Assembly (NCBI GenBank): GCA_006226565.1 | Contig: SBGO01000334.1 | Coordinates: forward strand, 359-64,358 | Direction: 5' to 3' | DNA length: 64,000 bases | Source of the DNA: Deltaproteobacteria bacterium | Lineage (GTDB): Bacteria > Myxococcota_A > UBA9042 > PHBI01 | In this document: positions 10,689 to 56,644 of the stretch, in pieces | Layout: each line of letters opens with the position of its first letter | How positions within the stretch are numbered: position 1 is the stretch's first letter | Made by a program: the position numbers and the translations under genes | Notes under the pieces: generated by a model | The model's input: only the letters and a program-made list of their open reading frames with translations | Told to the model about the DNA's origin: nothing | Database searches by the model: none

Positions 10689-10760
10689 CCGGACCGCCAT
10701 CGGGCCGATCCGGACCGCCATCGGGCCGGTCCGGATCGCCATCGGGCCGATCCGGATCGC
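10689..10760. repeat. tandem direct repeat, 21-nt unit x 3.4 (CCGGACCGCCATCGGGCCGAT / ...GGT / CCGGATCGCCATCGGGCCGAT / CCGGATCGC)
   Basis: Read directly from the sequence. It lies 5 nt beyond the stop of gene 10765..11529 and about 540 nt upstream of the RM gene start codon. Confidence 0.9.
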
Positions 10761-10764
10761 AGGA

Positions 10765-39683: not shown

Positions 39684-42600
39684 AGATCCACGAAGTCACC
39701 AGCGGCGTCGCCGCGACCCTGCGCGTCACCAACCCGGAGGGCGCCTTCAGCCCGCCGCCCGCGACCGGCGATGAGCTGGTCCTGGTCTCGTCCTCCGATC
39801 AGATCCTCGCCCGCGCCGGCGACCTGGTCTGGCCCGTTCGAGGCACCACGCCGCTGGATCACGACGCGCTCGTTCGCGTGGTCGACGGCGCCGGTCCGTT
39901 CGTCGCATTCGTCGCCCGCTGTGTGGACGACACCATGGTCGTCGAGACGCGACGCTTCCGATCCGAGGTTCGGCTCGGTGAGCCGCTCGACATCGGCCTC
40001 GACGACAAGGCCCTCGACGACCTGCGCCGTACCACCCGTCGCGGCGGCAGCGTCGTCGACATCGTGCGGTGGCTATCGGAGCAGTTGCTGCTCCCACCGA
40101 TCCCCGGAGGGCCCTCCGAGCTCGCCCGCTTCGTGGTCGCAGGCGACCTGCGCGACCGGCCGGACGTCTTCCGCATCTACGGCCGCAGGCTGGCCGTCGA
40201 CGTGCGCCGTGCGGATGGGAAGCTCCGGGTCGAGCGCGCGGCCCGCGGCGCGACGCCCGGGAGGGAGCCGCTGACGCTGATGCTCGCCCCGGTGAGGTTC
40301 GTGGACGCGACCCTGACGGCGGAGCTCACGACGGAGGCCCGAGCCGCGCTCGAGCAGGCGGTGGCCGACGCTGGCAGCTACCTCGCGATGTGGGAGCACT
40401 TCCACGCGCTCGACGTCGCGACCACGGAGCAGCAGGCCCGAGCCTTCGGCGCGGTGGAGTACACCTCGCGGAAGCAGGGCCCCGAGCGCGGCTGGACCTT
40501 TCGCCTCGTGAAGGACGAGTCCCTCGCCGAGCGACTCGCCGTGCTCGCCGACGGCCACGGCGTGACACTCGAGGTCGGCGAGCGCGCACCGTCCTTCGAC
40601 GGCACCGGGAGGCCGAGGCGGAAGGAAGAGGGTCAGAAAGTCCCCTTCTCCAGCCACGTCACCCACCTCGACGCCGGCAAGGGGCGACTCGATCTCGCGC
40701 CGGCCGACGATGAGGCTGCAGCACCACCAGAGAAGGGCTTCCTGTTCATCGCGCGCGCTGGCGATCGGACGCGTCAGGCCCGGCGCGAGCGCGCCGAGGA
40801 GGCGCTCCGAAACGGGACCTGCCCGATGCCCCAGCTCGGCCTCCTGATGGAAGGGCGGCCCGCCCCGGCCGCTCGCCTGCCGCGGCGACCCGCGATGAGC
40901 CCCGCCGTCCGGGCGCTGTTCGGCCCCGACGGGCCCACCCAGCGACAGCGCGAGGCCATCGAGCGCGCACTGAACACGCCCGACGTCTGCCTCATCCAGG
41001 GGCCCCCGGGCACCGGCAAGACCAAGGTCATCACCGCTATCGAGGCCCGCGTCGCGGAGCTGGCCGACGAGGGCCTCGAGGTCTCGCACCGCGTCCTCGT
41101 CACCGCGGCCCAGCACGACGCCGTCGAGAACGTCGCCCAACGGACCGACGTCTTCGGCCTGCCGGCCGTCAAGATCGGCCGGCGACGAGGCGACGACGGC
41201 GACGGCGAGGACGCCGTCGATCGGTTCCGCGAGGACCGCATCGACGCGCTGCGTGCCAAGCTCCGCGTCCCCCCCGAGGCCGAGCGGCTCGCGAAGGCGC
41301 GCGCGATGGCGGTAGCCTGCATGCGCACCCGCGCGCTCCCCGACGCCCAGGCGCGACGCGTCCGCGAGATCGCGTCCACGCTCGACGGCCTGCTCCCCCC
41401 GGCGCTCGTGGACCGCGCGCTGGACCGCGCGGCCAGCCTGGAGTCGCGCTCGGACGCCGGAGACCCGGAGCAGCGCGAGCTCGAGCTGCGCGCCGCCCGC
41501 GGGATCCGCGTCACCCCCGGCCCATTCTCCGATGACGGCCCGCTCCAGGCCGCCAAGGCGCTGCGGCGCCTCGACGACCGACTGACGCCCGACGAGCGCG
41601 CCTACCTCGAGCGCTGCGCTCAGGTCGAGCAGGATGTGGCGCCCGATTGGATCGATGCCGGTGCGCCGCTCCGTGACGCGCTCATCGACCGCCTCTCCTC
41701 GGCCGCGACGCCGACCGAGGCGCGCCTCGACGACGACACCCAGCGGCTCCTCCTCACGCTCCTCGACGCCGTGGACCACCGCTACGCAAGCGCCGAACTC
41801 GGAGACGGCGCCGCGATCGCCGGCTTCATGCGAGACCTCGAGGGCGACCCCGAGGGCGTCCGCGAGATGCTCCAGCACTACACCGTCGTCCTCGCGGCGA
41901 CGCTCCAGCAGGCTGCCGGGCGCCGCATGATGGCGGCGCGCGGTCTCACCAGCGGTAGCGCCGAGTTCGAGACCGTGATCGTCGACGAAGCCGCGCGAGC
42001 CCACCCCCTCGACCTGTTCATCCCGCTCAGCATGGCGAAGCGGCGCGTCGTCCTCGTCGGCGACCACCGCCAGCTCCCCCACCTGCTCGAGCCCGATGTC
42101 GAGCGTCAGCTCGCCGACGGCGTGGAGTCCGGCAGCGTCGGCCAGGAGGTCCTCGAGGCGGTGCAGGCCAGCCTCTTCCAGCGGCTCTGGGAGTCGCTGC
42201 GACACCTCGAGAAGCAGGACGGGATCAAGCGAACCGTGACGCTCGACGTTCAGTACCGGATGCATCCGGTCCTCGGCGACTTCATCAGCCGAACCTTCTA
42301 CGAGCACCACGGCGACGGGCGCGTCGAGAGTCCGCGCCCCGCGGGCGACCTGGCCCACCAGCTCCCGGAGTATCTGCGGGACGGCGAGGGTGTCCCAGCG
42401 GCGTGGCTCGACGTACCGGCCCACACAGGCGCGGAGGTGCCTGGGCGCAGCAAGCGGCGGCCCGCCGAGGCGAAGACGATGGCGCGCGAGGTGCGCCGCC
42501 TGGTCGACGCGGATCCGACGCTTACTTTCGGCGTCATCGCCTTCTACGCCGGACAGGTCGACGAGATTGGTGAGGCGATGCTCAAGGAGGGGCTCACCGA

Positions 42601-42961
42601 GCGGACCCACGACGGGCGCGGCTGGGAAGTCGCCGCGGGCTACCGAACGACGGTCGACGCGGACGGACGGCGCGTCGAGCGGCTGCGCGTCGGGACCGTG
42701 GACGCCTTCCAGGGCCGAGAGTTCGACGTCGTGCTGTTGTCCGTGACCCGCTCCAACACGCTCCCCGGCGCCACGCCCGAGCAGCAGCGCCGGAAGTACG
42801 GGCACCTGATGCTCGACAACCGCCTCTGTGTCGCGATGAGCCGACAAAAGCGGTTGCTAATCGCCGTCGGCGACCTCTCTTTCGTGCGTGAGGCCGAGCC
42901 GCTGCGCGCGCTGCGGGAGCTTGCCCGACTCTGTGGAGGAAGCCATGGCGTCATTCGATAA
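39680..42961 (+). CDS. SF1 Upf1/DNA2-like helicase with an about 500-aa N-terminal domain of unknown function
   Basis: This is the C-terminal 1093 codons of ORF 38663..42961. The GTG at 39680 overlaps the kinase stop (GTGA) and is preceded by GGAGG. Helicase motifs are CLIQGPPGTGKTKV (I), TVIVDEAARA (II), VLVGDHRQLP (III), YRMHP (IV), VDAFQGREFDVVLLS (V) and VAMSRQKRLL (VI). Confidence 0.8.
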   Translation: MKIHEVTSGVAATLRVTNPEGAFSPPPATGDELVLVSSSDQILARAGDLVWPVRGTTPLDHDALVRVVDGAGPFVAFVARCVDDTMVVETRRFRSEVRLGEPLDIGLDDKALDDLRRTTRRGGSVVDIVRWLSEQLLLPPIPGGPSELARFVVAGDLRDRPDVFRIYGRRLAVDVRRADGKLRVERAARGATPGREPLTLMLAPVRFVDATLTAELTTEARAALEQAVADAGSYLAMWEHFHALDVATTEQQARAFGAVEYTSRKQGPERGWTFRLVKDESLAERLAVLADGHGVTLEVGERAPSFDGTGRPRRKEEGQKVPFSSHVTHLDAGKGRLDLAPADDEAAAPPEKGFLFIARAGDRTRQARRERAEEALRNGTCPMPQLGLLMEGRPAPAARLPRRPAMSPAVRALFGPDGPTQRQREAIERALNTPDVCLIQGPPGTGKTKVITAIEARVAELADEGLEVSHRVLVTAAQHDAVENVAQRTDVFGLPAVKIGRRRGDDGDGEDAVDRFREDRIDALRAKLRVPPEAERLAKARAMAVACMRTRALPDAQARRVREIASTLDGLLPPALVDRALDRAASLESRSDAGDPEQRELELRAARGIRVTPGPFSDDGPLQAAKALRRLDDRLTPDERAYLERCAQVEQDVAPDWIDAGAPLRDALIDRLSSAATPTEARLDDDTQRLLLTLLDAVDHRYASAELGDGAAIAGFMRDLEGDPEGVREMLQHYTVVLAATLQQAAGRRMMAARGLTSGSAEFETVIVDEAARAHPLDLFIPLSMAKRRVVLVGDHRQLPHLLEPDVERQLADGVESGSVGQEVLEAVQASLFQRLWESLRHLEKQDGIKRTVTLDVQYRMHPVLGDFISRTFYEHHGDGRVESPRPAGDLAHQLPEYLRDGEGVPAAWLDVPAHTGAEVPGRSKRRPAEAKTMAREVRRLVDADPTLTFGVIAFYAGQVDEIGEAMLKEGLTERTHDGRGWEVAAGYRTTVDADGRRVERLRVGTVDAFQGREFDVVLLSVTRSNTLPGATPEQQRRKYGHLMLDNRLCVAMSRQKRLLIAVGDLSFVREAEPLRALRELARLCGGSHGVIR

Positions 42962-44405
42962 AGACACTCCGGTGCTTCGCTTCACGAAGCTGCGGAAGCC
43001 GGACGTGCGGTGGGTCCTCTGGCCCGTCCTGGCGTGGCGCGTGGTCGCGCCCGTGCCCCAAGGGCGCCGGTTGAACCTGCTCCAGAAGGCCGCGCTCGGG
43101 TTGGTGCGTGCCGGTGTGACGACGGCGCAAGATGTGTCGGAGCGGCTCCTGATCCTGCCCGACCTCGCGGCCCTCGTGCTCACCGAGCTGCAGGGGATGC
43201 GCCTCGTCGACGAGCTCGGCGCGCTGACACCGAGGGGCGCCGAGCTCGTCGACGAGCTCGACGTCGACCCGCCCGAGGCCCTCGAGGTCGGACACGTCCT
43301 CGCCGATCCGTTCACAGGCAGCCTCTGGCCGCGGCTCTTGACCGGGGACCTCCCGCTGGCGGAGGTCGAGCAGAACGACCAGGGGTGGCCGGTGCTCCTG
43401 AGCGGAAGTCCGGGCGCCCCCTGGCGCGACCATGCCTTCTGCGTGCTGCCGCGACGCGACGACGCCGTGGTCATCGCGCGTCCCGGGGCGAAGGACATCC
43501 TGAGGGCGGCGCGGCGCGGCCGGCGCGTGGCGCAAGCGATGGGCGACGCCGCCCCGGCGCTCCGGCTCGTCTCGTTCATCGACGAGCGGCCGGAGCCCTA
43601 TCTCGCCGCGCTCCCGGTGGTCTCGCACGCCTCGGGCGACTGGATCGTCCTCGATCCCTTCGGCGGCGGCGCGTCCTTCGAGCTGCGCCGGCAGGTCGAG
43701 CGACGCCTCGACGTGCAGCCCGGACTCCGTGCCTGGCTCGCACCGCTCGTGGGGGGCGACGTCGTCGAGGCGACCACCGCGGAGCTCCAGCGACGCGCGG
43801 CGTGGGAGGTCGAGGAGCAGCTGACGCTGGGCGTACGCCGCTTCGCGGGCGTCCACGACCACCTGGTGGCGATGCAGCGAGCGTGGCTCGAGGCGCAGGC
43901 GTGGGAGTCCCCTGACGACAAGGTCGACGACGTGCTCGTCAAGGCGCAGCGCGCGGTGGAAGCGACGATTCGCGAGGTCCTGCGCGGGCACTCCGATCCT
44001 GACGAGCGCCTCTACCTGCAGCTCGCCCCTTCCCACGTGAAGGGATATCAGCGCCAGAACCGCGGCCTCCTGGACGACATCGCTGCTGGGCTCGGCTTCG
44101 CCTCGCCGCTACCGACACAGCTCTCCGGTGTGAAGCCCGGCAAGGTCCAGAGCGCCGAGCAGAGCCTGCGCGGGAGCCTCCGACCGCTGCTGCTCGCCAC
44201 GCTGCTCGCCGCGGACCGGAACGACCGGCACCCACTGCGGCGTTCCGCCAGCGCCTGTCCTGACCTGCTCGAGCGCCTCGACGCCCTGGCCTCCGCCCGC
44301 GACCGCGCCGCCCATGACGGCGACGGCGCGTGGCCCGAGCGCCTCCCCGTACACCTCGAGACGACCTACGACATCGTTCGACACCTCCTGCTCCACAACG
44401 CCTGA
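42945..44405 (+). CDS. hypothetical protein (486 aa)
   Basis: ORF 42888..44405. ATG at 42945 (MASFDKDTPV) is preceded by GGAGGAAG and overlaps the helicase 3' end by 17 nt. No motif was recognised. Confidence 0.5.
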   Translation: MASFDKDTPVLRFTKLRKPDVRWVLWPVLAWRVVAPVPQGRRLNLLQKAALGLVRAGVTTAQDVSERLLILPDLAALVLTELQGMRLVDELGALTPRGAELVDELDVDPPEALEVGHVLADPFTGSLWPRLLTGDLPLAEVEQNDQGWPVLLSGSPGAPWRDHAFCVLPRRDDAVVIARPGAKDILRAARRGRRVAQAMGDAAPALRLVSFIDERPEPYLAALPVVSHASGDWIVLDPFGGGASFELRRQVERRLDVQPGLRAWLAPLVGGDVVEATTAELQRRAAWEVEEQLTLGVRRFAGVHDHLVAMQRAWLEAQAWESPDDKVDDVLVKAQRAVEATIREVLRGHSDPDERLYLQLAPSHVKGYQRQNRGLLDDIAAGLGFASPLPTQLSGVKPGKVQSAEQSLRGSLRPLLLATLLAADRNDRHPLRRSASACPDLLERLDALASARDRAAHDGDGAWPERLPVHLETTYDIVRHLLLHNA

Positions 44406-44433
44406 AGCTCCATCTCTCCAAGGAAAGACCGAC

Positions 44434-46962
44434 ATGACCAAGCCGCGCAAGCACCCGAAGTCCCGTCCGCAGCCCAGCCCGAAGAGCGCCGAGAAGAGCG
44501 CGTCGACCGAAGAGGTCGCCGAGGTCGAGACGATCGAGGCAGAGGCAGCCGCCCTGACCGGGTCGCTCGGCGCCCCCCCTGCGCCCGCGGAGCCGCAGAG
44601 CACCGACGTCGCGCTCGGCACGCTGGTGGCCCGCGCTGCGAAGGCCCTCGAGGAGCTCAAGGGGCACCTCGCCACGGCGAAGACGACCCGCGACGCAGCC
44701 GAGCGCCGGGCCAGGCAGGTCGCGGAGGAGGCGGACGCGTTGCAGGCCGAGCGGACCGCGCTCGAGGAGGCTCGACGCGCCGCCGAGTCTCGGGACGCCA
44801 GCCTCGCCGAGCGCGAGGCGTCCGTCGTGGCGCGGGAGCTCGACGCCGAGCGCGGATTCCTCGCGCACAAGGCGGAGATCCTCGGGGGCCTCGAGGCGGA
44901 CGTGAGCGCGCTCCGCGCCCAGCGCACGGCGCTCGCCGACGAGCTGCGGGGGCGCCGAGAGAGCGCGGAGGAGGAGGCGCGCAAGAAGGTGGAGGCGCAC
45001 GAGCGCAAGTGGGCCGACGCGCAGAAGAAGCGGAGCGAGCACGCGGCGAAGGCGCGCCTGGAGCTCGACGAGGCGCTCGCTCGCGACCGTGAGACCGGCC
45101 TCGCCGAGACCCGCAAGAAGCTCCAGGAGGAGCGAGAGCGGGTGCGTGCAACCCTGGACGCGGAGCGGTCAGCCCTCGATGCGGAGATCATGGCACGGCA
45201 CGGCGCGCTGCAGGCCCACTCGGACGCCCTCGACACGCGCGAGCGGGAGCTTCGGATCACCGAGCGTGACCTCCTCGTCGATCAGGACCTCATGAAAGAG
45301 GAGCGCGAGGCCCTCGACAAGAAGGTCGCCCGCCTCGTGGCGGAGTCGACCGAGCAGCTCCGGCACGAGCTCGCGAGCGCGACCACGCTGCTGAAGGAGG
45401 CGCGGGCTCAGCGTGATGGCTACTGGGCCGACCTCGAGGCCCGACGCGAGCTGGACCGCCGCTTCGGCGGACGAACGCCCGAGGAGATCCTGGCCCACCT
45501 CCAGCACGTCGAGCGGGAGCGTGACGAGCTGACGCGCCAGCTCCGCGAGCGCCCCGACGAGCGCGCGGCGACGCGGCTCGCCAACCTCGAGCGCGAGCGC
45601 TCCGACTGGCACGACCAGCGCGCGAGCCTCGAGGTGGATCTCGCCAACGCGCGCTCCGAGCTGAGCACCCGGCGCATCGCGGCCATCGAGCTCGAGGGCC
45701 TGCGGCGGGAGAAGGAGGCCCTGCGCACGACGAACGCGCTGCTCGACCAGGCGCTCTCCGAGCTCGACGCCAAGGTCACGGAGCTCACCCACCAGGACGA
45801 CAAGCGCAACCCGATGACCGCCCTCACGGCCCTGGACGCCGACGAGGTTCTCCAGCTGCCGCGTCGCACGGTCGCGCCGCTGCACGGCGCAACGCCGGAC
45901 CTGCGCGCGTTCGCGGAGGATCTGCGTCACCGCATCGCCCATGGTGTCGAGGGGCGGACCCTCTACTACACGGCGGAGGACATCCGAGCGTTCCTCGGCG
46001 GCCTCGCGATGACGCAGCTCATGCTCCTCCAGGGCATCTCCGGGACGGGGAAGACGAGCCTGCCGCTCGCCTTCGCGAGCGCGGTCGGGGGCGACGTGGA
46101 GGTCGTCGAGGTGCAGGCGGGCTGGCGCGACCGACAGGACCTGGTCGGCTACTACAACGCCTTCCACAAGCACTACTACGCGACGAGCTTCCTGCAGGCG
46201 CTCTACCGGGCGGGCACGCCGGCGAACAAGGACCGCGTCTTCCTGATGGTCCTCGACGAGATCAACCTGTCCCGGCCCGAGCAGTTCTTCGCCGACTTCC
46301 TGTCCGCGCTGGAGCAGCCGACGGAGAAGCGCCGCCTCACGCTGGTCAACGACCCGATCACGGCCGCGCCGAAGCTCCTCGTGGACGGTCGCCACTTGCC
46401 GATCCCGCCGAACGTGTGGTTCGTCGGGACGGCCAACCACGACGAGACGACCGTGGCGTTCGCGGACAAGACCTACGATCGGGCCCACGTCATGGAGATG
46501 CCGCGGAACACCGACGCAGCGCGCTTCGAGGTCGAGCACAAGAACGGCCGCGGCACCATCTCGCACCAGGGGCTCATCGACGCCTTCGCCGCCGCCGCGG
46601 CCAAGCGGAGCAACGAGGTCGAGCACGCGACGCAGTGGCTGCGCCAGGCGCCGTTCGCCGAGACCCTCGGGCGTCGCTTCCGGGTCGGCTGGGGCAACCG
46701 CCTCGAGCAGCAGCTGGGGCGCTACCTCCCCGTCATCGTCGAAGCCGGGGGCAGCGTGGGTGAGGCGATGGATCACCTCCTCGTGACGAAGGTCTTCCGC
46801 AAGCTCGCGGACCGGCATGACGTGCGGGCGGAGGCGCTCGGCACCCTCAAGGACGAGCTCCTCACGACCTGGCTGGACCTCGACAAAGCTCACGGCCCCG
46901 AGCGCTGCGCGGCGCTCCTCGACCGCGAGATCGAGGCGAAGCTGGGGGAGGATCTGGCTTGA
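44434..46962 (+). CDS. McrB-like AAA+ GTPase/ATPase with an about 480-aa N-terminal coiled-coil region
   Basis: ORF 44314..46962. ATG at 44434 (MTKPRKHPK) is preceded by AAGGAAAG. The AAA region has LLQGISGTGKTS (Walker A), LMVLDEINLSRPEQFFADFLSALE (a McrB-type DEIN...F..L..LE Walker B plus sensor) and FVGTANHDE. The upstream half is highly charged (heptad-like ER/EA/AL repeats). Confidence 0.65.
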   Translation: MTKPRKHPKSRPQPSPKSAEKSASTEEVAEVETIEAEAAALTGSLGAPPAPAEPQSTDVALGTLVARAAKALEELKGHLATAKTTRDAAERRARQVAEEADALQAERTALEEARRAAESRDASLAEREASVVARELDAERGFLAHKAEILGGLEADVSALRAQRTALADELRGRRESAEEEARKKVEAHERKWADAQKKRSEHAAKARLELDEALARDRETGLAETRKKLQEERERVRATLDAERSALDAEIMARHGALQAHSDALDTRERELRITERDLLVDQDLMKEEREALDKKVARLVAESTEQLRHELASATTLLKEARAQRDGYWADLEARRELDRRFGGRTPEEILAHLQHVERERDELTRQLRERPDERAATRLANLERERSDWHDQRASLEVDLANARSELSTRRIAAIELEGLRREKEALRTTNALLDQALSELDAKVTELTHQDDKRNPMTALTALDADEVLQLPRRTVAPLHGATPDLRAFAEDLRHRIAHGVEGRTLYYTAEDIRAFLGGLAMTQLMLLQGISGTGKTSLPLAFASAVGGDVEVVEVQAGWRDRQDLVGYYNAFHKHYYATSFLQALYRAGTPANKDRVFLMVLDEINLSRPEQFFADFLSALEQPTEKRRLTLVNDPITAAPKLLVDGRHLPIPPNVWFVGTANHDETTVAFADKTYDRAHVMEMPRNTDAARFEVEHKNGRGTISHQGLIDAFAAAAAKRSNEVEHATQWLRQAPFAETLGRRFRVGWGNRLEQQLGRYLPVIVEAGGSVGEAMDHLLVTKVFRKLADRHDVRAEALGTLKDELLTTWLDLDKAHGPERCAALLDREIEAKLGEDLA

Positions 46963-48968
46963 AGCTGCGCCCTCGACTCGCGCTCCCTTCCGCGCCGAAT
47001 GAGCCCCCTCCGAGGGCGCTGCTCTGCGACGCCTGGACGATCCACGGGCAGCGAACCAGCGGCGAGGCCGGCGCCTACCCGGGGCCGGTCGTCGGGAACT
47101 GGCCGGACGACCTGGAGACCGACGCCGCGCAGCGGCTCTCCGAAGCCGTCGGGAGCGAAGCCGGCTGGGAGACGCTCGCGGCGACCCCGGCGATCGCGCG
47201 GAAGCTCAGCGAGCGAGCGCGGCTGCAGCCGCTCGACCGCGAGCTCCTTCGCCACCTCCATCATCTGCAGGAGGTCTGTCATCGCCCACGCCTCCACCTG
47301 CGCGTGGAGGACGAGCGTCTTCCCGTGGCGCGCGCGCGGCGATGGCCCACCCGGGCCGTGGCGGACCTCGTGTCCCACCCCGGAGACTGGGAACACCGCA
47401 CGCTGCGAAGCGTGCAGCCGCGACGCATCTTGGCGCGACAGATCGAGGACGAGTGGAACCTGTACGAGAACCGCGTGGCGGTCCGCCTCGTCGACCGGCT
47501 CCTCACCTATCTCGCGCGTCGGATCGAGGAGCTTCGGCGCATCGAGACGACGATGGCGCAGCGACGCGACCAGGGCGATCACACCAAGTCGTCACGGTGG
47601 CGCGTCCACCGCATCATGACGGCCTGGGCCGAGAGCCTCGACGCCGACACCGAGCACGCGCTGAGCGACACCCAGCGCGCGCTTGCGCACGCGCAGCAGA
47701 AACTCCAGGCCCTGACCGACACCCCCCTCTACCGGCACATCCCGCTGCGGGCGACGGTCCCGCTGGCGCTCCAGCAGACGAACATCCTTTCCAACGACGC
47801 CCACTATCGCAAGGTCGCCGCGTTGTGGCGCGCGTGGTCCCGGCACGGCTACAAGAAGCCGGAGACGCGGCTTCAGCGCGAGCGTCGGCGCCAAGAGGAG
47901 GCGCACGCGTGGGACCGCTTCGTGCTGCACCTGGTCGCGCGCGCAGCGACAGCGCTGGGCTGGACTGCGAGCGGCGACGCGCCCGCGTGGCGGCTGGAGA
48001 AACCCGGAGCGACAGACGTGACGGTGGAGGTCTCCGAATCCGGAGCCGTGACGCTGCACGCGGGGGGGGCGGGCCGACTCGCCTTGGTGCCGCTCTGCGC
48101 CGTGCTCGAGTTTGCCGATGCGCAGGCCGTCGACGCTGCGCTCCAGCCCTGGAGTGACAGTGAGGTCGAGGTCGTCGGGATTCACGTCGGCGGCGTGGCC
48201 GGCAAGGTCGACGCGGACCGGGCGACGGGCTGGCGGTTCGGCGACCACGCTGTCCTCCTCCCGGCATCGCCGTGGGCGATCGACTCGGAGGAGCGTATGG
48301 CGCGGCTCCTCAATGGCTGGTTGGCCCGTCACGCGAGCCCGACGTACCCGGTCCACGTGGAGGCGCGAGCGCTCCCGCAGCCGCCTCCCTGGGAGTGGTT
48401 GATCAAGAACGATCAACACATTGTCGCGCTGCGCGCTCCGACACGACGCGAGCACCAAGACGCCACGACGTGGTGCCAGCGAGAGCAAACGAAGCTCGAG
48501 CGCGCCGCGGAGCAGGCACGAGCGGCCAAGCAGGCGTTCTCTCGCGCACCGCTCACCGCGATCGGCGTGTTGAGCGACCTGATCCACACCGCCGCCCGGC
48601 TCGAGGACCTCGCGTCGTGCCCGGTGTGTGGTGGACGCGGTCACGTCCACCCGCGCCCCGGCCGCGCACCTGACGGGAGCGACGCGACGTGGTGGGCGAG
48701 CTGTCCCGGCTGCGGCGCCGAGTGGGGCCTGCGTGCCTGCACCACCTGCGGTGACCGCTTTCCGGTCCTCTTCCCCCATCTCAGCCAAGAGACTCGGGCG
48801 AGCCTGGAAGGCCTCGCCGCTGCCGACTGGCCGGACCGCGCGCTCGGCGCGGATGCCTGGGCACAGCCGTGCCGCGGCGACTTCCCTCGACACGCCCGCT
48901 GCCCGACCTGCGGCAGCTGTTCGAGCGGCGAATGCCGACACTGCTCAGCGCCACCGGGAGGGCACTAA
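46959..48968 (+). CDS. Cys-rich partner protein of the McrB-like ATPase (possibly McrC/DUF2357-like N-terminus; several C-terminal CxxC zinc ribbons)
   Basis: ORF 46959..48968; the TTG start overlaps the upstream stop. The C-terminal CPVCGG...CPGCGAEW...CTTCGD...CPTCGSCSSGECRHC gives at least four CxxC pairs. I could not find a convincing PD-(D/E)xK motif. Confidence 0.45.
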   Translation: MKLRPRLALPSAPNEPPPRALLCDAWTIHGQRTSGEAGAYPGPVVGNWPDDLETDAAQRLSEAVGSEAGWETLAATPAIARKLSERARLQPLDRELLRHLHHLQEVCHRPRLHLRVEDERLPVARARRWPTRAVADLVSHPGDWEHRTLRSVQPRRILARQIEDEWNLYENRVAVRLVDRLLTYLARRIEELRRIETTMAQRRDQGDHTKSSRWRVHRIMTAWAESLDADTEHALSDTQRALAHAQQKLQALTDTPLYRHIPLRATVPLALQQTNILSNDAHYRKVAALWRAWSRHGYKKPETRLQRERRRQEEAHAWDRFVLHLVARAATALGWTASGDAPAWRLEKPGATDVTVEVSESGAVTLHAGGAGRLALVPLCAVLEFADAQAVDAALQPWSDSEVEVVGIHVGGVAGKVDADRATGWRFGDHAVLLPASPWAIDSEERMARLLNGWLARHASPTYPVHVEARALPQPPPWEWLIKNDQHIVALRAPTRREHQDATTWCQREQTKLERAAEQARAAKQAFSRAPLTAIGVLSDLIHTAARLEDLASCPVCGGRGHVHPRPGRAPDGSDATWWASCPGCGAEWGLRACTTCGDRFPVLFPHLSQETRASLEGLAAADWPDRALGADAWAQPCRGDFPRHARCPTCGSCSSGECRHCSAPPGGH

Positions 48969-49077: not shown

Positions 49078-52000
49078 GTGTCGCTGAAGCCAGGTTTGTA
49101 CGACCTTCCCGTGACCCGCGCGGTCGCTCGCGCCCTCGAATCGCTCGCGGTCGAGCTCAGGCAGGTCGAAGACGTCGAAGCTGACGAGCTGCCGCTCATG
49201 CTCGCCCGACACCTTCAGCGTCGCCTGGTCCATGCGTTCGGCGCAATTCCCCGGGACGAGCGAAGCACCGAGGCCGTCGAACTCGCAAATCGCCTCCTCG
49301 CAGACGTTCAGGAGCGGTGGCCGCGCGCCGGGCACGACGCAGAGGACGAGGTCGTAGCGCCTGCGCGCAAGCTCCTCGCCGTCGCGGCACCGGCGATTGT
49401 GCCCCACGTCCCGGAGCGCCCCGCCATCCCCCTCGCGACGAGCGACCTGCTCGTCAACGGCCACATGGACAAGGCGGTCGGCCCCGAGCTGCGCCGCGAG
49501 CTCGCCTCCGCCGACCGCGTGGACCTCCTCTGCTCGTTCATCAAGTGGTCGGGCCTTCGTCTCCTCGAAGACGCGCTGAAGGAGCTGCTCGCGCGCCGCC
49601 CGCGCAGCCTCCGCGTCCTGACGACCGCGTACATGAGCGCGACCGAGCGCCGCGCCCTCGACGCTCTGGTAGCGCTTGGTGCCGATGTCCGCGTCTCATA
49701 CGACACGGCGCGGACGCGCCTGCACGCCAAGGCGTGGCTCCTGCATCGCGAGAGCGGCTTCTCGACCGCCTTCGTCGGCTCGTCGAACCTATCGGCCGCC
49801 GCGCTGCTCGATGGCCTCGAGTGGAACGTCCGCCTCTCCCAGGTCGATAACGGCCCCATCCTCGAGAAGTTCGAGGCGACCTTCGACCAGTACTGGGGCG
49901 ACACCGAGTTTCAGCCCTACGACCCGACTACCTTCGACGCCGCGCTCGTGACGGAGCCCGCGGGGCCCACCCCGTCGCTGCTCATGCTCGACATCGAGCC
50001 ACGTCCCCACCAACAGGAGATCCTCGACGCCCTCGCCGCCGAGCGGACGCACGGCCACCACCGAAACCTCGTCGTGGCGGCGACCGGCACCGGCAAGACC
50101 ATCGTCGCCGCGCTCGACTATCGACGCCTCCGACGCGAGCTCCCTCGCGCGCGGCTCCTCTTCGTCGCCCACCGCGAGGAGATCCTCACCCAGAGCTTGC
50201 TCCTCTTCCGCGTCGCCCTCCGCGACGGCGCGTTCGGCGAGCTCCTCGTCGGCCGCGACCACGCCGCACGATGGGACCACGTCTTTGCATCGATCCAGTC
50301 GCTCCACGCGGACCGGCTCGCCGACCTGCCCAGGGACCAATTCGACGTCGTCATCGTCGACGAGTTCCACCACGCCGCCGCGGACACCTACACGCGCCTC
50401 CTCGAGCACTTCACGCCGCGCGTGCTGCTGGGTCTGACGGCGACCCCCGAGCGCGCTGACGGCCGCTCGGTGCTCGGCTGGTTCGACGGCCGCGTCGCCT
50501 CGGAGCTCCGGCTGTGGAAGGCGCTCGATCAGGGCCTCTTGAGCCCCTTCCACTACTTTGGCGTCGGCGGCGCGCCGGACATCAGCTCCGAGCGCCTGTG
50601 GGTCCGCGGCCGCTACGACCTTTCCAAGCTCGCCAACGTCTACACGGCCAACCACGTCTTCGCGCTCCGCGTCCTCCAGGAGGTCGAGCACAAGGTCACG
50701 GACATCGGGAAGATGCGCGCGCTCGGCTTCTGCGTGGACATCGCCCACGCCGAGTTCATGGCCGAGCAGTTCGGCAAGCGCGGCGTTCCTTCGCTGGCGG
50801 TCAGCGCCAAGACGTCTAAGTCGGGCCGCCGAGGCGCGCTCGAGGCGCTGCGAGACGGCACGATTCGCGTGCTGTTCACCGTCGACCTCTTCAACGAGGG
50901 CGTCGACCTCCCCGACGTCGACACCGTCATCTTCCTCCGCCCCACCGACAGCGCGACCGTGTTTCTCCAGCAGCTCGGTCGAGGGCTGCGACGATCGCGT
51001 GACAAGGCGTGCTTGACGGTGCTCGACTTCATCGGTAACGCGCATCGCCGCTTCCGCTTCGACACGCGCTTTCGCGCCATCGTCGGCGGCACCCGCCGCG
51101 GGGTGCGGGAGCAGGTTGAGCAGGGATTCCCGTCACTTCCAAGTGGCTGCAACATCCAGCTCGACCGCGAGGCGACGCGCGCGGTCCTCGACAATATCAA
51201 GCACGCGCTCGGCCTCGGTCGCCGCGGGCTCGTCGACGACCTGCGTCAACTGACCCAAGAACGGGGAAACGTCGATCTGGACACATTCCTACGCGAGTCG
51301 GGCGTAGACCTCGAGGACCTCTACACGTCGAAGAGCGGCGGATGGTGCTTCACCCGACTCAGACGGGAAGCGGGCGTCATCCCTGCCCCCGGCGACGGCG
51401 ACGCTGACGCCGAGCGCAACGAGCAGGTCGAGCGTGCCTACGGCCGCCTGCTGCACCTCGACGATAGCTGGCGACTCGAAGGGCTGCGGCGACTCCTCGC
51501 TCATGCCATCCCACCGTCAGCCGATCCGAGCGATGCGCTCCAGCGAGCCCTCTTCGTGTACCTCGGCGACATGCGCCGCCCGTTGACCGAGATGCAGAGC
51601 GCTTTCGACCACCTCTGGCGAAACGCCGACCTTCTCGATGAGCTCCGGCAATTGTTGGCGCTGCTCTACGACCGCACTCGGCGACTGACGACGCCGCTCT
51701 TCGGCGGCGGGCTCGACGCGCCGCTACAAGTCCATGCGACCTACAGCCTCGACGAGGTGATGGCGCTGGTGGACGAGCGCAACAGCAAGGGCGGCATTCA
51801 GCGCATTCAGACGGGCGTCTACTACCTCGAGGCGGCACGAACCGACTTGTTCTTCGTCACGCGCGAGAAGAGCGAGAAGCACTACACCCCGACGACGCTC
51901 TACAAGGACTATCCGCTGAGCACGCGACGGTTTCATTGGGAGAGCCAGTCCACCTGCCACGCGGGAACAAAGACGGGGCGACGCTACACGACGCTGGCCC

Positions 52001-52197
52001 GCGGGGGGGACAACCAAGCGCTCATGTTCCTTCGCCAGCGGCGGCACGACGATCGCGGTGAGACGATGCCGTACACTCTACTTGGCCGCTGCTACTACGA
52101 ATCCCACACGGAGGAACGCCCCATGGAGATCGTCTGGGCGCTCGAGCACCCGATTCCAGCGGCATTCTACCAGGAGATCAAGGTCGCGGCGGGGTAG
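49078..52197 (+). CDS. PLD-family (HxK) nuclease / SF2 DEAH-type helicase / C-terminal DUF3427-like domain fusion
   Basis: This covers about 1039 codons of ORF 48628..52197 from GTG 49078; the start is uncertain. The PLD motif is RLHAKAWLLHRESGFSTAFVGSSNLS (HxK...GSxN). Helicase motifs are VVAATGTGKT, VVIVDEFHH, GLTATPER and TVDLFNEGVDLPDVDTVIFLRPTDS...QQLGRGLRR. Its 3' end overlaps the convergent gene by 20 nt. Confidence 0.7.
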   Translation: MSLKPGLYDLPVTRAVARALESLAVELRQVEDVEADELPLMLARHLQRRLVHAFGAIPRDERSTEAVELANRLLADVQERWPRAGHDAEDEVVAPARKLLAVAAPAIVPHVPERPAIPLATSDLLVNGHMDKAVGPELRRELASADRVDLLCSFIKWSGLRLLEDALKELLARRPRSLRVLTTAYMSATERRALDALVALGADVRVSYDTARTRLHAKAWLLHRESGFSTAFVGSSNLSAAALLDGLEWNVRLSQVDNGPILEKFEATFDQYWGDTEFQPYDPTTFDAALVTEPAGPTPSLLMLDIEPRPHQQEILDALAAERTHGHHRNLVVAATGTGKTIVAALDYRRLRRELPRARLLFVAHREEILTQSLLLFRVALRDGAFGELLVGRDHAARWDHVFASIQSLHADRLADLPRDQFDVVIVDEFHHAAADTYTRLLEHFTPRVLLGLTATPERADGRSVLGWFDGRVASELRLWKALDQGLLSPFHYFGVGGAPDISSERLWVRGRYDLSKLANVYTANHVFALRVLQEVEHKVTDIGKMRALGFCVDIAHAEFMAEQFGKRGVPSLAVSAKTSKSGRRGALEALRDGTIRVLFTVDLFNEGVDLPDVDTVIFLRPTDSATVFLQQLGRGLRRSRDKACLTVLDFIGNAHRRFRFDTRFRAIVGGTRRGVREQVEQGFPSLPSGCNIQLDREATRAVLDNIKHALGLGRRGLVDDLRQLTQERGNVDLDTFLRESGVDLEDLYTSKSGGWCFTRLRREAGVIPAPGDGDADAERNEQVERAYGRLLHLDDSWRLEGLRRLLAHAIPPSADPSDALQRALFVYLGDMRRPLTEMQSAFDHLWRNADLLDELRQLLALLYDRTRRLTTPLFGGGLDAPLQVHATYSLDEVMALVDERNSKGGIQRIQTGVYYLEAARTDLFFVTREKSEKHYTPTTLYKDYPLSTRRFHWESQSTCHAGTKTGRRYTTLARGGDNQALMFLRQRRHDDRGETMPYTLLGRCYYESHTEERPMEIVWALEHPIPAAFYQEIKVAAG

Positions 52198-55100
52198 CGG
52201 CCGTGTCGATTTGTTCCACCAGAACGAGGGCCCAGCCGGTATCGATCCAACGGGTTGAGGCCTTAGGCGTACCGTGGAGGTAGCGGAGGTGGTTGACGAG
52301 GGCTTCGTCGAGCGGGGCGTTGCGGCGCTTGGCCTCGTTGCGAGCGTAGAGGACCCATGCGAGGTCGGTCAGGGAGACGGTACGCTCGGCAAAGCCGTCG
52401 GGGCCGCCGTCGATGCGGAGACCACCCTGGGCGGCGCGCCCAACGATGTGGAGATGCTTGTCGTCGGTGACGAGCTCGGTGCCCGGTGGGTGTTCCTCGA
52501 GAAGCTGGGTGACGAGGCGAACGGCCGCCTCGAGCCACTCGGGTGGTAGCCGTCGAGAGGCGCTCCGCCCCCTGCCCAACGCGCGCCAGGTCGTGAAGTC
52601 GACATCGGGGATCGCCCATTGCGCGTCGTTCGGCAGAAAGCCTCCGACGCCCAGGAAGCGCCAGGGCGCGTCGCTGGCACCTCGTGCGAGGACGAACGCG
52701 GTCTCGCCTGGGCGAGGCCGGACTCGACGACTCGGGTGGACAACACGGTCTGGGTCGGCGAGAGCCCCCTGCCCTTCGACCAACACGAACAGGTGACCGT
52801 CGACCCTCTGGGCGGGCGCGCTCGGAGGCGCCGAGAGAGCGAAGGTCGCTGCGAGGTCATCCTCGGGCACCACTGACCCGACTTCCGGCGCGAGAGACTC
52901 CGGCCGCACGACGTCGACGAGCAGCGCGACCGGCTCATCACCCGGCCGAGCCGGCATCGGAGCGTGCTCGGGGTTGTCGCTGGCGAAGACAAATCCCGCG
53001 GCCGTCTGCTCCAGTCGCTTGATGTGATAGGTCTGGGTCTCGTCGTCATGCGAACGGGCCACCAAGACGACGCGATTCAGCAGGCGCGCACGCGACTCCC
53101 CCCGCGCCCAGCGCATCACCAGCCAATCCCCGTCACGGATGTCCCGTGACCACGGGATGGCGCGGCCCGACATCGAGTCGCCAGACGCTCGCACCGCAAA
53201 GCACGACTCGCGGTCGAAGTCGCCAGGAAGCGCGACCTCGTCCGCCTCGATTCCGCCTGCGTCGTAGCCCGCTGGCGACCACCCCGCCGCCGCCTGTAGG
53301 CTCGGAAACGCGATGAGTCGCCCACGACTCGGGAGCGGAATGACCGGCGCGTCGTCCGCCTCCACCGGGGTCACGTGCCAACCGTCCGGGCTCGGCGCAA
53401 ACCGCACACGGAAGCTCGTCCCTGAACGCCCGGCATCTGGCCCGAACCAGCCGCGCAACAAGTCCGGCAGTCGGTTCGCCGACGTTCCGACCGGGTGCGC
53501 CACGTTGACCGCAATCTTCGCGAACCGAAACACCCAGTGTCGCCCGTCCGGCGCGCGAACATCCGTCGGTCCCGACGGCAACCCCGGTGCGCGCTCGCGG
53601 TCCGGGAGCTTCAGGATTGGCCCCTGCGCGTTGTGGATGAGCTTGGCTTCGAAGGCAGTCCCCAACGACGCCGAGCCCTCGGCCGCGCGGCGCTGCCGAT
53701 AGCCCCACAGCCGATAGTCGACGAGCTCGCGCGTCATGGCCGTCAGCGCTTCCCGCGCCGACGATGGCACCGAAAACCTCGGCTCGAAGCGCGTCTCCGA
53801 CAGCCGGAACTGTGGCGTCTTGCCAGTCGTCCAATGCTCCAGCGGCCACTTCGTCCAGTAGGCTCGCCAAGCCTCGGCCGACGCGGTCCGCGGGTCGCCC
53901 AGTTCCTTCGCGCTGAGGTCTGCTTCCAGCTCAGGCGCGCGCAACATGATGGCGCGCGACCTCTCGCAGAGCGCCGAGACGTCCACGCCGCTCGCCAACG
54001 CGTCGAGGTCGACGAGCGCCTCGAGAGCGACCATCCTGAAGGACTTCGTCATCGACTCACGCCGCTCGACGGCACGCAGGAAGGCACCGGCCGCCGCCAG
54101 TGCCTCGCGCTCTCCGGGGGTCAGGTGCCCCTCCGACGCCACGAAGTCGAACCACCCCTCGAAGGACGTCAGACTTCGGGGATTGAACCCCTGGCGCGCC
54201 AGCTCGCCGATGCGCGGCCGTTCGCCGCGCAGCGCTACGCGGTCCCGATAGGCCCGGACCACCGCGTGGCGCGCCCCCGATGGAAGCAGGCGCCGGAGAA
54301 GGTCCTTGGCCTCGAGCGCGACATCGACGCTGCAGCCCGGCGGCAGCGATGCCGCCGTCCCGTCGAGCCATGCGCGCACCGACACCGGCCCGCCCGGGGC
54401 ACGTCCGAGATTCACGAGCGAGCGGACACGATCCAGGAAAACCCGGTGGTTGCCGACGAAGTCGATGACCGTCAGGCGCTCCTTCCCCGGTGCCTTGCGG
54501 AGTCCGCGCCCGAGCTGCTGCATGAAGATGACCGGCGACTCGGTCGGTCGAAGCATGACGACACGGTCGAGCGCTGGCAGATCGACCCCCTCGTTGAAGA
54601 GGTCGACGGTGACCACCGCCGTCACGGCGCCGTTCGCGAGCCCGCGCAGGGCATCGATCCGGTCCGCGCTGTTCGGGCCGGAATGGACGGACACCGCGGA
54701 GACGCCGCGCTCGGAGAGCCAGCGCGCTACGAAGTCGGCGTGGTCGATCGAGCAGCAGAACACCAACGACCGCTCACCCGGATGCGCCTGCCAGCCCTCC
54801 CAGAGTCGTTCCATCCGAGCGTGCGTCGCCACCGCGGCGGACAGCTCCGCCGGTTGGAAGCGCCCGCCCCGCCACGGGATCGGCTGATAGTCGACATTGT
54901 CGACCAGGCCGAAGTAGGCGAACGGCACCAGGTGTTCGAGGGCGATGCCGACCCCGATGTCCGCCTCGAGCGCCAGGTGGTCATCGAAGAGCCCGAGGAT
55001 GTCGCCACCATCTCCCCGCTCGGGTGTGGCCGTCAGCCCCAGCCGAAAGCGCGTGTCGAAGTGCTCGAGCACTCGACGATAGCTCTGGGCGTCCGCGTGG

Positions 55101-56545
55101 TGGACCTCGTCGACGACGAGGTAATCGAAGGCGCCACGTGGTATCCGACCGAGCTGCTCGGGCCGCGCCAGCTTCTGGATGGACGCGAAGACGACATCAC
55201 CTTCCAGGTTGTCGAAGGGACCCGCGAACCAGCCAAAGCGCGCGTCAGGAAGCACGCGCCGAAACGCGCTGGCCGCCTGACGCAGCAGCTCGTCTCGGTG
55301 CGCGATGAACAGGACACGCGGGGCGTGACCCAGCTCTCGCGCCATCGCATCGATATCGAACGCCGCCAGGAGCGTCTTGCCGAGACCGGTCGCCAGCACC
55401 ACAACAGCCCGGTCCCGATGCTCGGCGCGCGCCCTAGCAAGCGCCTCGAGAGCGTCGCCCTGAACATCCCGCGGCTTCGGCGGCGTGGTCTGCTCGGGGT
55501 TGACCTCCCCGTCCGGGCGGGGTCGCCCGGTCGCCCGAGCGCGTTCCGCGTAGGTCGCGAGCCACTCGTCGGTGAGCGGGGTAGCGACGCGCCACGAGCG
55601 CTCGAACGCCTCGAGCACCTCGGCGAACCCGACGGGGTCGGCCGTCCGATCCAGACGAAGGTTCCACTCGATGCCATCGGTCAGCGCCGCCCGAGAGATG
55701 TTCGAGCTACCGACGAACGCGACGTCCCGACGTCCGCCGAGGAAGACCCAGGACTTTGGGTGGAACGTCGCGGCATCGCGATAGTGCGCCGCCTCGACCA
55801 CACGGACGTCGAGCGCACCTCGCTCATCCGCAGCCTCCTCATCGAGGACCTCGGTGCGCACGAGGTCGAGGAGGCGCCGCAGCGCGTGGGCCTGGGTGAG
55901 ATTGAGGTAGTCGCCCGTGAGAATGCGGACAGTCGCGCCACGCGAAACCGCCAGGTGCAGGTCGGGCTCGAGCTCCCGGACCCCTGAGAGCATGGTGAAC
56001 GCAGCGAGGATCTGCACCTGACTCGCGGTGCGCAGGTACGGGCCGATGTGTGTGTAGAACGGATCGAGGCGGCCTCCCGTCGAGAGCCGCCGACCGCCGT
56101 CGCCTCGAGAGGCTGGCTGCGTCACCGCGAGGCGACGGGGGATGTGGCCCGCTCGCTTGTAGTTGCCCGCCTCGGGGATGACGAAACGGACACCGCCGCG
56201 TGGGTCGTCGACATCATCGCAGTAGCGCGGGATGACGTGGACGTGCAGGTGCATAACGGTCTGCCCGGCAGGCTCGCCCACATTGATGCCGATGTTGTAG
56301 CCGTCGGGTCGAAGCTCCTCGTCGAGCTCGCGCTTCACCTCCTCGACGAGGTCGAAGACCGCACGTTGCTCGTCCGGCGTGGTCTCGAACCAGCTCGCGA
56401 CCAGCCGCTTCGGAATGACGAGGGTATGACCGGGGCTGACGGAATATCCATCGCGGATGGCGAACGCGAGCGCGTTCGACGCCACCCACTCGGACTCGGA
56501 GCGCTCGAGGAAGACTGACGTCGGCGGGGCGGAGTCCTGGTTCAT
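52178..56545 (-). CDS. multidomain fusion: HIT (histidine-triad) nucleotide hydrolase, then PLD HxK nuclease, then SF2 helicase, then an unknown region, then an S24 LexA-like autopeptidase domain, then a C-terminal domain
   Basis: ORF 52178..56581; ATG at 56545 (MNQDSAPPTSVFLERSES). HIT motif VMHLHVHVIPR at about 56230-56251. PLD motif FHPKSWVFLGG...GSSNIS. Helicase motifs are VVVLATGLGKT, YLVVDEVHH, GLTATPER and TVDLFNEGVDLP...QQLGRGLRK. S24 motifs are SGDSMSG (Ser, 53171-53182) and YHIKRLE (Lys, about 53018-53020), which compare with LexA GDSM and VKRL. Confidence 0.75.
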   Translation of the reverse strand: MNQDSAPPTSVFLERSESEWVASNALAFAIRDGYSVSPGHTLVIPKRLVASWFETTPDEQRAVFDLVEEVKRELDEELRPDGYNIGINVGEPAGQTVMHLHVHVIPRYCDDVDDPRGGVRFVIPEAGNYKRAGHIPRRLAVTQPASRGDGGRRLSTGGRLDPFYTHIGPYLRTASQVQILAAFTMLSGVRELEPDLHLAVSRGATVRILTGDYLNLTQAHALRRLLDLVRTEVLDEEAADERGALDVRVVEAAHYRDAATFHPKSWVFLGGRRDVAFVGSSNISRAALTDGIEWNLRLDRTADPVGFAEVLEAFERSWRVATPLTDEWLATYAERARATGRPRPDGEVNPEQTTPPKPRDVQGDALEALARARAEHRDRAVVVLATGLGKTLLAAFDIDAMARELGHAPRVLFIAHRDELLRQAASAFRRVLPDARFGWFAGPFDNLEGDVVFASIQKLARPEQLGRIPRGAFDYLVVDEVHHADAQSYRRVLEHFDTRFRLGLTATPERGDGGDILGLFDDHLALEADIGVGIALEHLVPFAYFGLVDNVDYQPIPWRGGRFQPAELSAAVATHARMERLWEGWQAHPGERSLVFCCSIDHADFVARWLSERGVSAVSVHSGPNSADRIDALRGLANGAVTAVVTVDLFNEGVDLPALDRVVMLRPTESPVIFMQQLGRGLRKAPGKERLTVIDFVGNHRVFLDRVRSLVNLGRAPGGPVSVRAWLDGTAASLPPGCSVDVALEAKDLLRRLLPSGARHAVVRAYRDRVALRGERPRIGELARQGFNPRSLTSFEGWFDFVASEGHLTPGEREALAAAGAFLRAVERRESMTKSFRMVALEALVDLDALASGVDVSALCERSRAIMLRAPELEADLSAKELGDPRTASAEAWRAYWTKWPLEHWTTGKTPQFRLSETRFEPRFSVPSSAREALTAMTRELVDYRLWGYRQRRAAEGSASLGTAFEAKLIHNAQGPILKLPDRERAPGLPSGPTDVRAPDGRHWVFRFAKIAVNVAHPVGTSANRLPDLLRGWFGPDAGRSGTSFRVRFAPSPDGWHVTPVEADDAPVIPLPSRGRLIAFPSLQAAAGWSPAGYDAGGIEADEVALPGDFDRESCFAVRASGDSMSGRAIPWSRDIRDGDWLVMRWARGESRARLLNRVVLVARSHDDETQTYHIKRLEQTAAGFVFASDNPEHAPMPARPGDEPVALLVDVVRPESLAPEVGSVVPEDDLAATFALSAPPSAPAQRVDGHLFVLVEGQGALADPDRVVHPSRRVRPRPGETAFVLARGASDAPWRFLGVGGFLPNDAQWAIPDVDFTTWRALGRGRSASRRLPPEWLEAAVRLVTQLLEEHPPGTELVTDDKHLHIVGRAAQGGLRIDGGPDGFAERTVSLTDLAWVLYARNEAKRRNAPLDEALVNHLRYLHGTPKASTRWIDTGWALVLVEQIDTAATPPRP

Positions 56546-56644
56546 CCGACGCAGAATCGGGCCCCATCCCGCTGGCGTCAATCCGTCCCTGGAACAGCGA
56601 GGGCTGCTGGGCGACCGGGCCGGTGGGCCCGGTCGCCCACGACG

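Follow-up and report, generated by a model that had tools for sequence, protein, structure and literature searches.

We report that a gene on the reverse strand of a 64,000-nucleotide stretch of contig SBGO01000334.1 (the window), from a deltaproteobacterium of the Myxococcota_A lineage, very probably encodes a SauUSI-type enzyme with a genuine S24 autopeptidase cassette inserted where the coupler meets the DNA reader. Its sequence marks the protein as a paralogue of SauUSI, an ATP-dependent Type IV restriction enzyme of Staphylococcus aureus, with a new and conserved cassette of apparently regulatory character added. A preliminary description, made from the sequence alone, had placed a LexA-type S24 domain and a HIT domain in a PLD-helicase of 1455 aa. 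Both domains are recovered above Pfam expectation (S24, E 4.5e-7; HIT, E 1.5e-22), and the length is that of the public gene call on the metagenome contig, which starts at Met13 (position 56545) and is identical to our protein from that residue onward. The open reading frame itself spans 52178..56581 on the minus strand, stop codon included, and yields 1467 aa from a TTG start; residues are numbered in this longer frame throughout, unless the 1455-aa frame is named. With a third-position G+C content of 0.82 in a window of 71% G+C, it has the codon-position pattern of a real gene. The motifs pointed out earlier lie where they had been placed: HLHVHV at aa 111-116 (56234-56251), GDSM at aa 1134-1137 (53171-53182), and KRL at aa 1188-1190 (53012-53020), with Lys1188 at 53018-53020. 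The coordinates of all features are collected in Table 1.

The S24 assignment draws on sequence, profile, and structure comparisons. Pfam Peptidase_S24 matches aa 1099-1215 with 30.0 bits, compared with a gathering cut-off of 23.3, and a profile of the region built from 36 family members matched only LexA C-terminal domains in the PDB (E 3e-6), aligning the GDSM motif and the Lys residue of our enzyme with the GDSM and Lys of LexA. The AlphaFold2 model of aa 1075-1245 has a predicted local distance difference test score (pLDDT) of 86, which falls to only ~60 around the cleavage loop. When this model was compared with the PDB using Foldseek, the top 38 matches were all lambda CI, LexA, or UmuD (probability 1.00, target TM-score up to 0.78), including a hyper-cleavable CI fragment with its cleavage-site region and the RecA-filament complexes 8gmu, 8gms, 8gmt, and 8trg. 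Structure prediction of the region, which the preliminary description had called for, returns the LexA/CI/UmuD fold rather than a non-S24 fold, and the S24 observation goes far beyond a chance motif.

The predicted catalytic apparatus of the cassette is complete. The Ser/Lys signatures likened earlier to those of LexA, CI, and UmuD correspond to Ser1136 and Lys1188, which align with the LexA Ser and Lys, and an AAAG site at aa 1097-1100 (53282-53293), absent from the preliminary description, contains the predicted scissile bond. In an alignment of 45 intact orthologues and our protein, on which all counts out of 46 are based, Ala1098, Ala1099, Gly1100, Ser1136, and Lys1188 are invariant in all 46 full-length sequences from Myxococcota, Acidobacteriota, and Planctomycetota. 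Ser1136 follows the Ala1099-Gly1100 bond by 36 residues; in E. coli LexA the distance is 34. The cassette thus shares with LexA, UmuD, and lambda CI the fold, the spacing of Ala-Gly, Ser, and Lys, and the local motifs (A/V)AG, GxSM, DGD, and xKR. Unlike LexA and its relatives, our protein has no helix-turn-helix DNA-binding domain and is not a transcription factor; its cassette is internal to a 1455-aa enzyme and is preceded by ~1100 residues and followed by ~230.

The strict invariance of Ala-Gly, Ser, and Lys argues that catalysis matters, and on this sequence evidence the S24 cassette probably cleaves itself. It is improbable that the domain serves mainly in a non-cutting role, either for dimerization as in LexA and CI or for docking onto filaments of RecA or a phage recombinase, with cleavage absent or incidental. 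S24 C-terminal domains do dimerize and bind the groove of the RecA filament, and complexes of this kind are among the top structural matches; a subgroup of relatives has Arg in place of the Lys, and the rare relative P0026, likely a pseudo-protease variant, has lost both Ser and Lys but still carries AAAG and the region of the S24 fold. Conservation of the three catalytic elements in 46 of 46 sequences is nevertheless hard to explain without catalysis, and SauUSI already dimerizes through its PLD domains (PMC7913695). Some S24 cassettes may be inactive, but the family of our enzyme keeps the Lys throughout.

The remainder of the protein follows the plan of SauUSI. SauUSI itself (PDB 7clg) was matched over aa 254-702 of the 1455-aa frame, aligned to SauUSI residues 111-563 (E 4e-73), and mREase_IV, the SauUSI-type model of PADLOC, covers aa 183-761 (E 1.3e-94). 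Pfam detects the motor as ResIII (aa 369-522, E 4.8e-35) and Helicase_C (aa 598-695, E 1.1e-15), while PLDc_2 over aa 199-330 scores 23.1, below its cut-off of 27. His274, Lys276, and the GSSN motif of the nuclease are invariant in all 46 sequences, as are the GxGKT and DEVHH motifs of the helicase. Because these motifs are invariant and the HIT histidines are kept in 43 to 45 of the 46 sequences, all four catalytic centers (HIT, PLD, helicase, and S24) are under purifying selection.

Between the helicase and the cassette lies a middle region (MID) that matches nothing in Pfam or the PDB by sequence; its proposed role as the coupler rests on position only, as it occupies the place of the SauUSI coupler (PMC7913695). 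Its last ~110 aa (aa ~960-1075, 53357-53700) are beta-rich and strongly conserved across the clade, with the pattern FEAKL..ILKLPDR..W.FRFAK..NV..LP.LLR.WFGPDAG..GT...V.F. By eye, this end of the MID resembles a DNA-binding pseudobarrel of the B3/EcoRII-N type, a likeness with no sequence support in Pfam or the PDB.

The preliminary description did not mention that a confidently folded tail of 230 aa follows the cassette. This tail (aa 1240-1467) likewise has no sequence match in Pfam or the PDB, DUF3427 included; its model (pLDDT 93) comprises a beta-barrel and then an alpha/beta domain, and in structure it comes closest to SauUSI's own SRA reader domain. GH, ET, and RYLxGTPKxSTRWID are among the conserved residues of the tail. 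On the strength of this model, the barrel is a putative SRA-like reader of DNA modification. An S24 cassette placed between a coupler and an SRA-like reader changes the expected effect of cleavage, compared with a domain that is merely embedded. A profile search for the tail in other architectures yielded nothing beyond fragments and decayed members of its own family. Decayed copies are found in Sorangium, where L010 and L078 have internal deletions that join HIT to S24, the tail, or both, and in Anaeromyxobacter oryzae, where frameshifts occur (L033). In seven orthologues (L047, L050, L059, L060, L064, L074, and L077), the tail is followed by a further C-terminal extension of 150 to 200 aa (~10600-11100) without a Pfam match.

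The similarity to SauUSI extends to the whole order of PLD nuclease, SF2 DExH ATPase, region in coupler position, and (in our protein, putative) C-terminal reader of SRA type, and each is encoded by a gene that stands alone, with no cognate methyltransferase. The differences are an N-terminal HIT domain, the S24 cassette between coupler and reader, an alpha/beta domain after the reader, and a putative reader that is not a Pfam DUF3427 member. By analogy, our protein is presumably an ATP-dependent, modification-dependent Type IV enzyme. Target recognition in SauUSI is the task of the C-terminal SRA domain, whose binding to methylated DNA switches on the ATPase via a helical coupler (PMC7913695).

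The relatives of the enzyme show that the cassette is optional. A search with aa 761-1467 returned 114 relatives, all of which share the MID, and in a separate scan of one genome per species with a profile of the tail, 114 loci were confirmed and 80 kept. Most of the kept loci belong to Myxococcota (Sorangium, Archangium, Nannocystis, Anaeromyxobacter, Minicystis, Pyxidicoccus, and Hyalangium), and others to Acidobacteriota and Planctomycetota. Wherever enough flanking sequence is present, they show the collinear order HIT-PLD-helicase-MID-S24-tail, and 45 loci contain intact open reading frames of ~1400 to 1680 aa. A library-wide profile search found 234 clusters (50% identity) of this S24 subfamily at an E-value of 1e-10 or lower.

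Four kinds of C terminus occur among the 114 relatives: proteins end after the MID (~1040 to 1090 aa), continue into the SRA half of DUF3427, continue into S24 only (~1200 aa), or continue into S24 and the tail. The clade with the order HIT-PLD-helicase-DUF3427 has HIT, PLD, helicase, and MID in common with our enzyme, at 35 to 45% identity in the MID, and differs in that a canonical DUF3427/SRA reader is joined directly to the MID without S24. In its member P0067, the MID ends at residue 1036 and the SRA half of DUF3427 (profile positions ~130-279) starts at 1043, a gap of 7 aa; P0362, P0367, P0326, and P0315 have an S24 domain of the same subfamily between the MID and the same DUF3427 segment. 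Conversely, L081 encodes an intact 1322-aa orthologue in which the MID runs straight into the tail with no S24; this tail has lost the conserved GH motif. Since every pairing of S24 presence or absence with DUF3427, the tail, or no reader is seen, S24 is a cassette that can be present or absent, located precisely at the motor-reader junction.

Further variants were met in the same searches. S24 of the same type ends the PLD-only nuclease P0339 and the HNH-cpYpsA(SLOG) protein P0343; these two and the four DUF3427-linked proteins named above have a Cys-Gly site like that of UmuD, and in one subgroup the Lys is replaced by Arg. In L087 (3966-7843), and also in L088 and L089, a methyltransferase gene, a gene for a 781-aa PLD-helicase, and a gene for a 280-aa S24-DUF3427 protein stand in a row. 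The small S24-DUF3427 protein, whose gene directly follows that of the PLD-helicase, begins right at the cleavage-site region, and such arrangements may be subunits, split genes, fragments, or frameshifts; P0014 is a frameshifted copy. The core-only relatives P0053, P0054, P0059, P0066, and P0042 end ~24 residues before the position of the scissile bond. Of these, P0066 (1067 aa) and P0042 (1091 aa) are complete genes that end just after the MID. Core-only relatives have different genes directly downstream, and a 224-aa gene downstream of one of them proved to be unrelated to the tail.

How the cassette might act can be proposed by analogy with its better-known relatives. The explanation we favor, still tentatively and with somewhat less than even confidence, is that a SauUSI-type enzyme carries a self-cleaving S24 domain at this junction, through which RecA filaments on single-stranded DNA (RecA*) trigger its shut-off, as in a fuse. 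The cassette would cut its own chain at Ala1099|Gly1100, the bond predicted from LexA, UmuD, and CI, and RecA* would stimulate the cut as in LexA, UmuD, and lambda CI. Cleavage would part the HIT-PLD-helicase-MID portion (~1100 residues) from the S24 core, SRA-like barrel, and alpha/beta domain (~370 residues), and the severed tether would uncouple target recognition from translocation and DNA cleavage, turning the enzyme off. If the enzyme attacked the chromosome of its host, for example owing to an acquired foreign methyltransferase or to DNA damage, the resulting breaks would load RecA, and RecA* would in turn disable the enzyme in a cis-encoded form of restriction alleviation. The preliminary description had proposed a self-cleaving, RecA*-responsive module inside a PLD-helicase; with the fold, Ala-Gly site, Ser, and Lys conserved, that part is a fair reading, while the messenger role that it suggested for HIT together with a CARF regulator found no support (see below). 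Taken separately, the chances that RecA* is the trigger appear evenly balanced, and shut-off as the outcome is possible, with its chances falling a little short of even.

Shut-off would be the consequence of cleavage because binding by the SauUSI reader is what switches on the ATPase. In LexA and CI, too, cleavage inactivates, by separating the functional domain from the S24 dimerization domain, and the N-terminal fragment of LexA, a substrate of ClpXP, has VAA at its C-terminal end. The C terminus that cleavage is predicted to create in our enzyme, ...L(R/Q)AAA, looks like this VAA end, which is only a lead. A comparable working logic, as opposed to family membership, is seen in the restriction alleviation of EcoKI, in which a translocating restriction enzyme is likewise disabled when the host chromosome is at risk. 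There, ClpXP degrades HsdR, a proteolytic shut-off after DNA damage (PMC12707154). The EcoKI protease acts in trans and recognizes stalled translocating complexes, whereas the protease of our enzyme would be built in and would read RecA*.

Several observations weigh against this explanation. The core-only proteins P0066 and P0042 resemble the predicted N-terminal product, which could therefore be active. Forms of ~1200 aa carry S24 without a reader, so that a cut in the tether to the reader cannot be the whole story, and the Arg at the canonical Lys position in a related DUF3427-linked subgroup suggests that some cassettes may not cleave. Upstream of the gene, no LexA box of the Myxococcus type (CTRHAMRYBYGTTCAGS, at most 2 mismatches) was found, the one match being far away and at chance level. 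The gene is thus not visibly in the SOS regulon, and SOS control of its expression is not required by the proposed shut-off.

Activation by cleavage, the direction assumed in the preliminary description, is judged slightly less likely than inactivation. As a complete alternative it is on the unlikely side: S24, with or without the reader, would hold the nuclease-helicase inactive or narrowly targeted, as in a zymogen, and RecA*-triggered self-cleavage would free the DNA-degrading core, leading to abortive infection or broadened restriction when RecA* forms on phage single-stranded DNA or after infection-induced damage. The evidence from fold and conservation serves this alternative equally well. 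The predicted product, residues 1-1099, is nearly coextensive with the natural core-only enzymes and is probably a folded, functional unit, although the latter may rely on partners encoded by separate genes. A removable inhibitory cap would fit the relatives that end in S24, and the Cys-Gly sites of the DUF3427-linked subgroup are of the kind found in UmuD. UmuD is activated by cleavage, and protease-triggered activation is common in bacterial immunity. However, the SRA reader of SauUSI activates the ATPase and does not inhibit it, and an inhibitory module that includes a conserved reader of DNA modification needs an extra assumption.

The N-terminal HIT domain is well supported, with PDB HIT proteins matched at E ~1e-13 and a histidine triad, HLHVHVI (aa 111-117), that follows the H-phi-H-phi-H-phi-phi pattern; His111, His113, and His115 are each kept in 43 to 45 of the 46 aligned sequences. 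Its best NCBIfam matches are ATP adenylyltransferase and HinT, and the closest families are Hint and enzymes of the Ap4A-phosphorylase type. A role as a hydrolase of nucleotides or adenylated DNA is plausible. According to the preliminary description, the triad could hydrolyze a second messenger, in keeping with an adjoining CARF regulator. We consider it highly improbable that HIT hydrolyzes a cyclic oligonucleotide or other messenger made or sensed by such a neighbor, as part of a signaling defense system. The triad is intact and conserved, and PADLOC finds the protein weakly similar to the ThsC HIT family of Thoeris (E 5e-9), but no CARF or other signaling gene adjoins the enzyme gene, and none of its neighbors is conserved across the 45 loci. 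Scans of the neighboring genes with Pfam and PADLOC revealed no CARF, SAVED, or cyclase gene, and this context was rejected. In addition, HIT is a common N-terminal accessory of the whole SauUSI-like clade, whatever the genomic context, and is replaced in relatives by a methyltransferase (P0315) or by nothing (P0326 and P0370). The signaling role is largely refuted by genomic context.

The enzyme gene sits in a defense island (Table 1). Its closest neighbor is a canonical SauUSI-like paralogue (49081-52197), which converges on it with a 3' overlap of 20 bp (52178-52197) and is 38% identical to it over the nuclease and helicase. On the other side, the 272-aa gene precedes it on the same strand, and the gene beyond that one has no Pfam match. 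To search for a conserved partner gene, open reading frames within 5 kb of the 45 loci were clustered all against all. The best family occurred at only 5 of the 45 loci, a result that leaves the enzyme gene standing alone; a stand-alone system without a cognate methyltransferase is what is expected for Type IV. Scans upstream of the gene revealed neither a sigma-70-like promoter nor a terminator. Between the stop codon of the 272-aa gene and the start of the enzyme gene lies a G+C-rich hairpin (56609-56638, minus strand) with a perfect 13-bp stem and a loop of 4 nt; because it lacks a T-run, it was not picked up by the terminator scan.

Table 1. Features of the enzyme gene and its surroundings in the window (residues in the 1467-aa frame)
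Feature	Residues	Position	Strand	Motifs and basis
Whole gene, HIT-PLD-SF2 helicase-coupler(MID)-S24-reader tail	1455 aa	52178..56545	-	Public gene call; 45 intact collinear orthologues; alternative TTG at 56581
HIT domain	29-120	56222..56497	-	Triad HLHVHV, 56234-56251; Pfam HIT, PDB HIT proteins
PLD-family nuclease	199-330	55592..55987	-	HxK motif H274-P-K276, 55754-55762; GSSN, aa 291-294; SauUSI 7clg, PADLOC mREase_IV; PLDc_2 below threshold
SF2 (DExH) helicase-like ATPase	369-695	54497..55477	-	Walker A GLGKT, aa 399-403; motif II DEVHH, aa 491-495; ResIII, Helicase_C
Middle region (MID), in SauUSI coupler position	746-1075	53357..54346	-	Common to all HIT-PLD-helicase relatives, with or without S24
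LexA/UmuD-type S24 autopeptidase cassette	1085-1240	52862..53329	-	Pfam S24; PDB LexA profile match; AlphaFold2; Foldseek
Predicted scissile bond Ala1099-Gly1100	1099-1100	53282..53287	-	In FPSLQAAAG, aa 1092-1100; AAG invariant, 46/46; aligns with LexA VAAG region
Predicted nucleophile Ser1136	1136	53174..53176	-	In SGDSM; invariant, 46/46; aligns with LexA GDSM/GMSM Ser
Predicted general base Lys1188	1188	53018..53020	-	In HIKRL; invariant, 46/46; aligns with LexA VKR Lys
Tail subdomain 1, small beta-barrel, SRA-like putative DNA-modification reader	~1257-1339	52565..52813	-	
Tail subdomain 2, alpha/beta domain	~1344-1463	52193..52552	-	Most conserved stretch VNRLRYLxGTPKxSTRWIDTGWA
Upstream same-strand gene	272 aa	56645-57463	-	Weak TPR match
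Canonical SauUSI-like PLD-helicase-DUF3427 paralogue		49081-52197	+	PADLOC mREase_IV, E 3e-257
669-aa protein	669 aa	46959-48968	+	Weak DUF2357 match; Cys-rich (CxxC-repeat) C terminus
McrB-like AAA_5 protein		44314-46962	+	
505-aa protein	505 aa	within 38663-48968	+	
SF1 helicase (AAA_11/AAA_12)	1432 aa	38663-42961	+	Long N terminus without an assigned domain

The preliminary description had called the domain combination undescribed, and full-text literature searches are in line with this: we found no earlier account of it and no publication that describes a restriction enzyme or defense effector with an S24 domain, although most subscription journals are not covered by such searches, so that the result is not proof of absence. 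Automated annotations already tag some members of the family with HIT hydrolase and LexA terms (e.g., P0016).

How bacteria keep potent nucleases from killing their own cells is a central question for restriction and defense, and ClpXP-dependent alleviation of Type I enzymes is, to our knowledge, the only well-understood post-translational safeguard. The enzymes described here are large DNA-cutting defense proteins of soil bacteria, with intact copies in the genomes of at least 45 species from three phyla. That they are restriction enzymes with an SOS sensor of their own, in which a LexA-type hinge lets RecA filaments sever the reader from the nuclease-motor, as a fuse or as a damage-licensed zymogen, is an idea that we hold at just under even confidence and by analogy. 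Occurrence of the same cassette on other nucleases (PLD-only and HNH-SLOG) suggests that RecA*-dependent self-cleavage may be a general and so far undescribed means of controlling defense effectors. If true, this would be the first case known to us in which LexA-type autoproteolysis controls neither a repressor nor a polymerase subunit but an effector enzyme. The enzyme itself would then link its defense activity to the condition of the host chromosome, and a Type IV enzyme with a RecA*-responsive hinge would offer a new, directly testable answer to the question of how the cell is spared.

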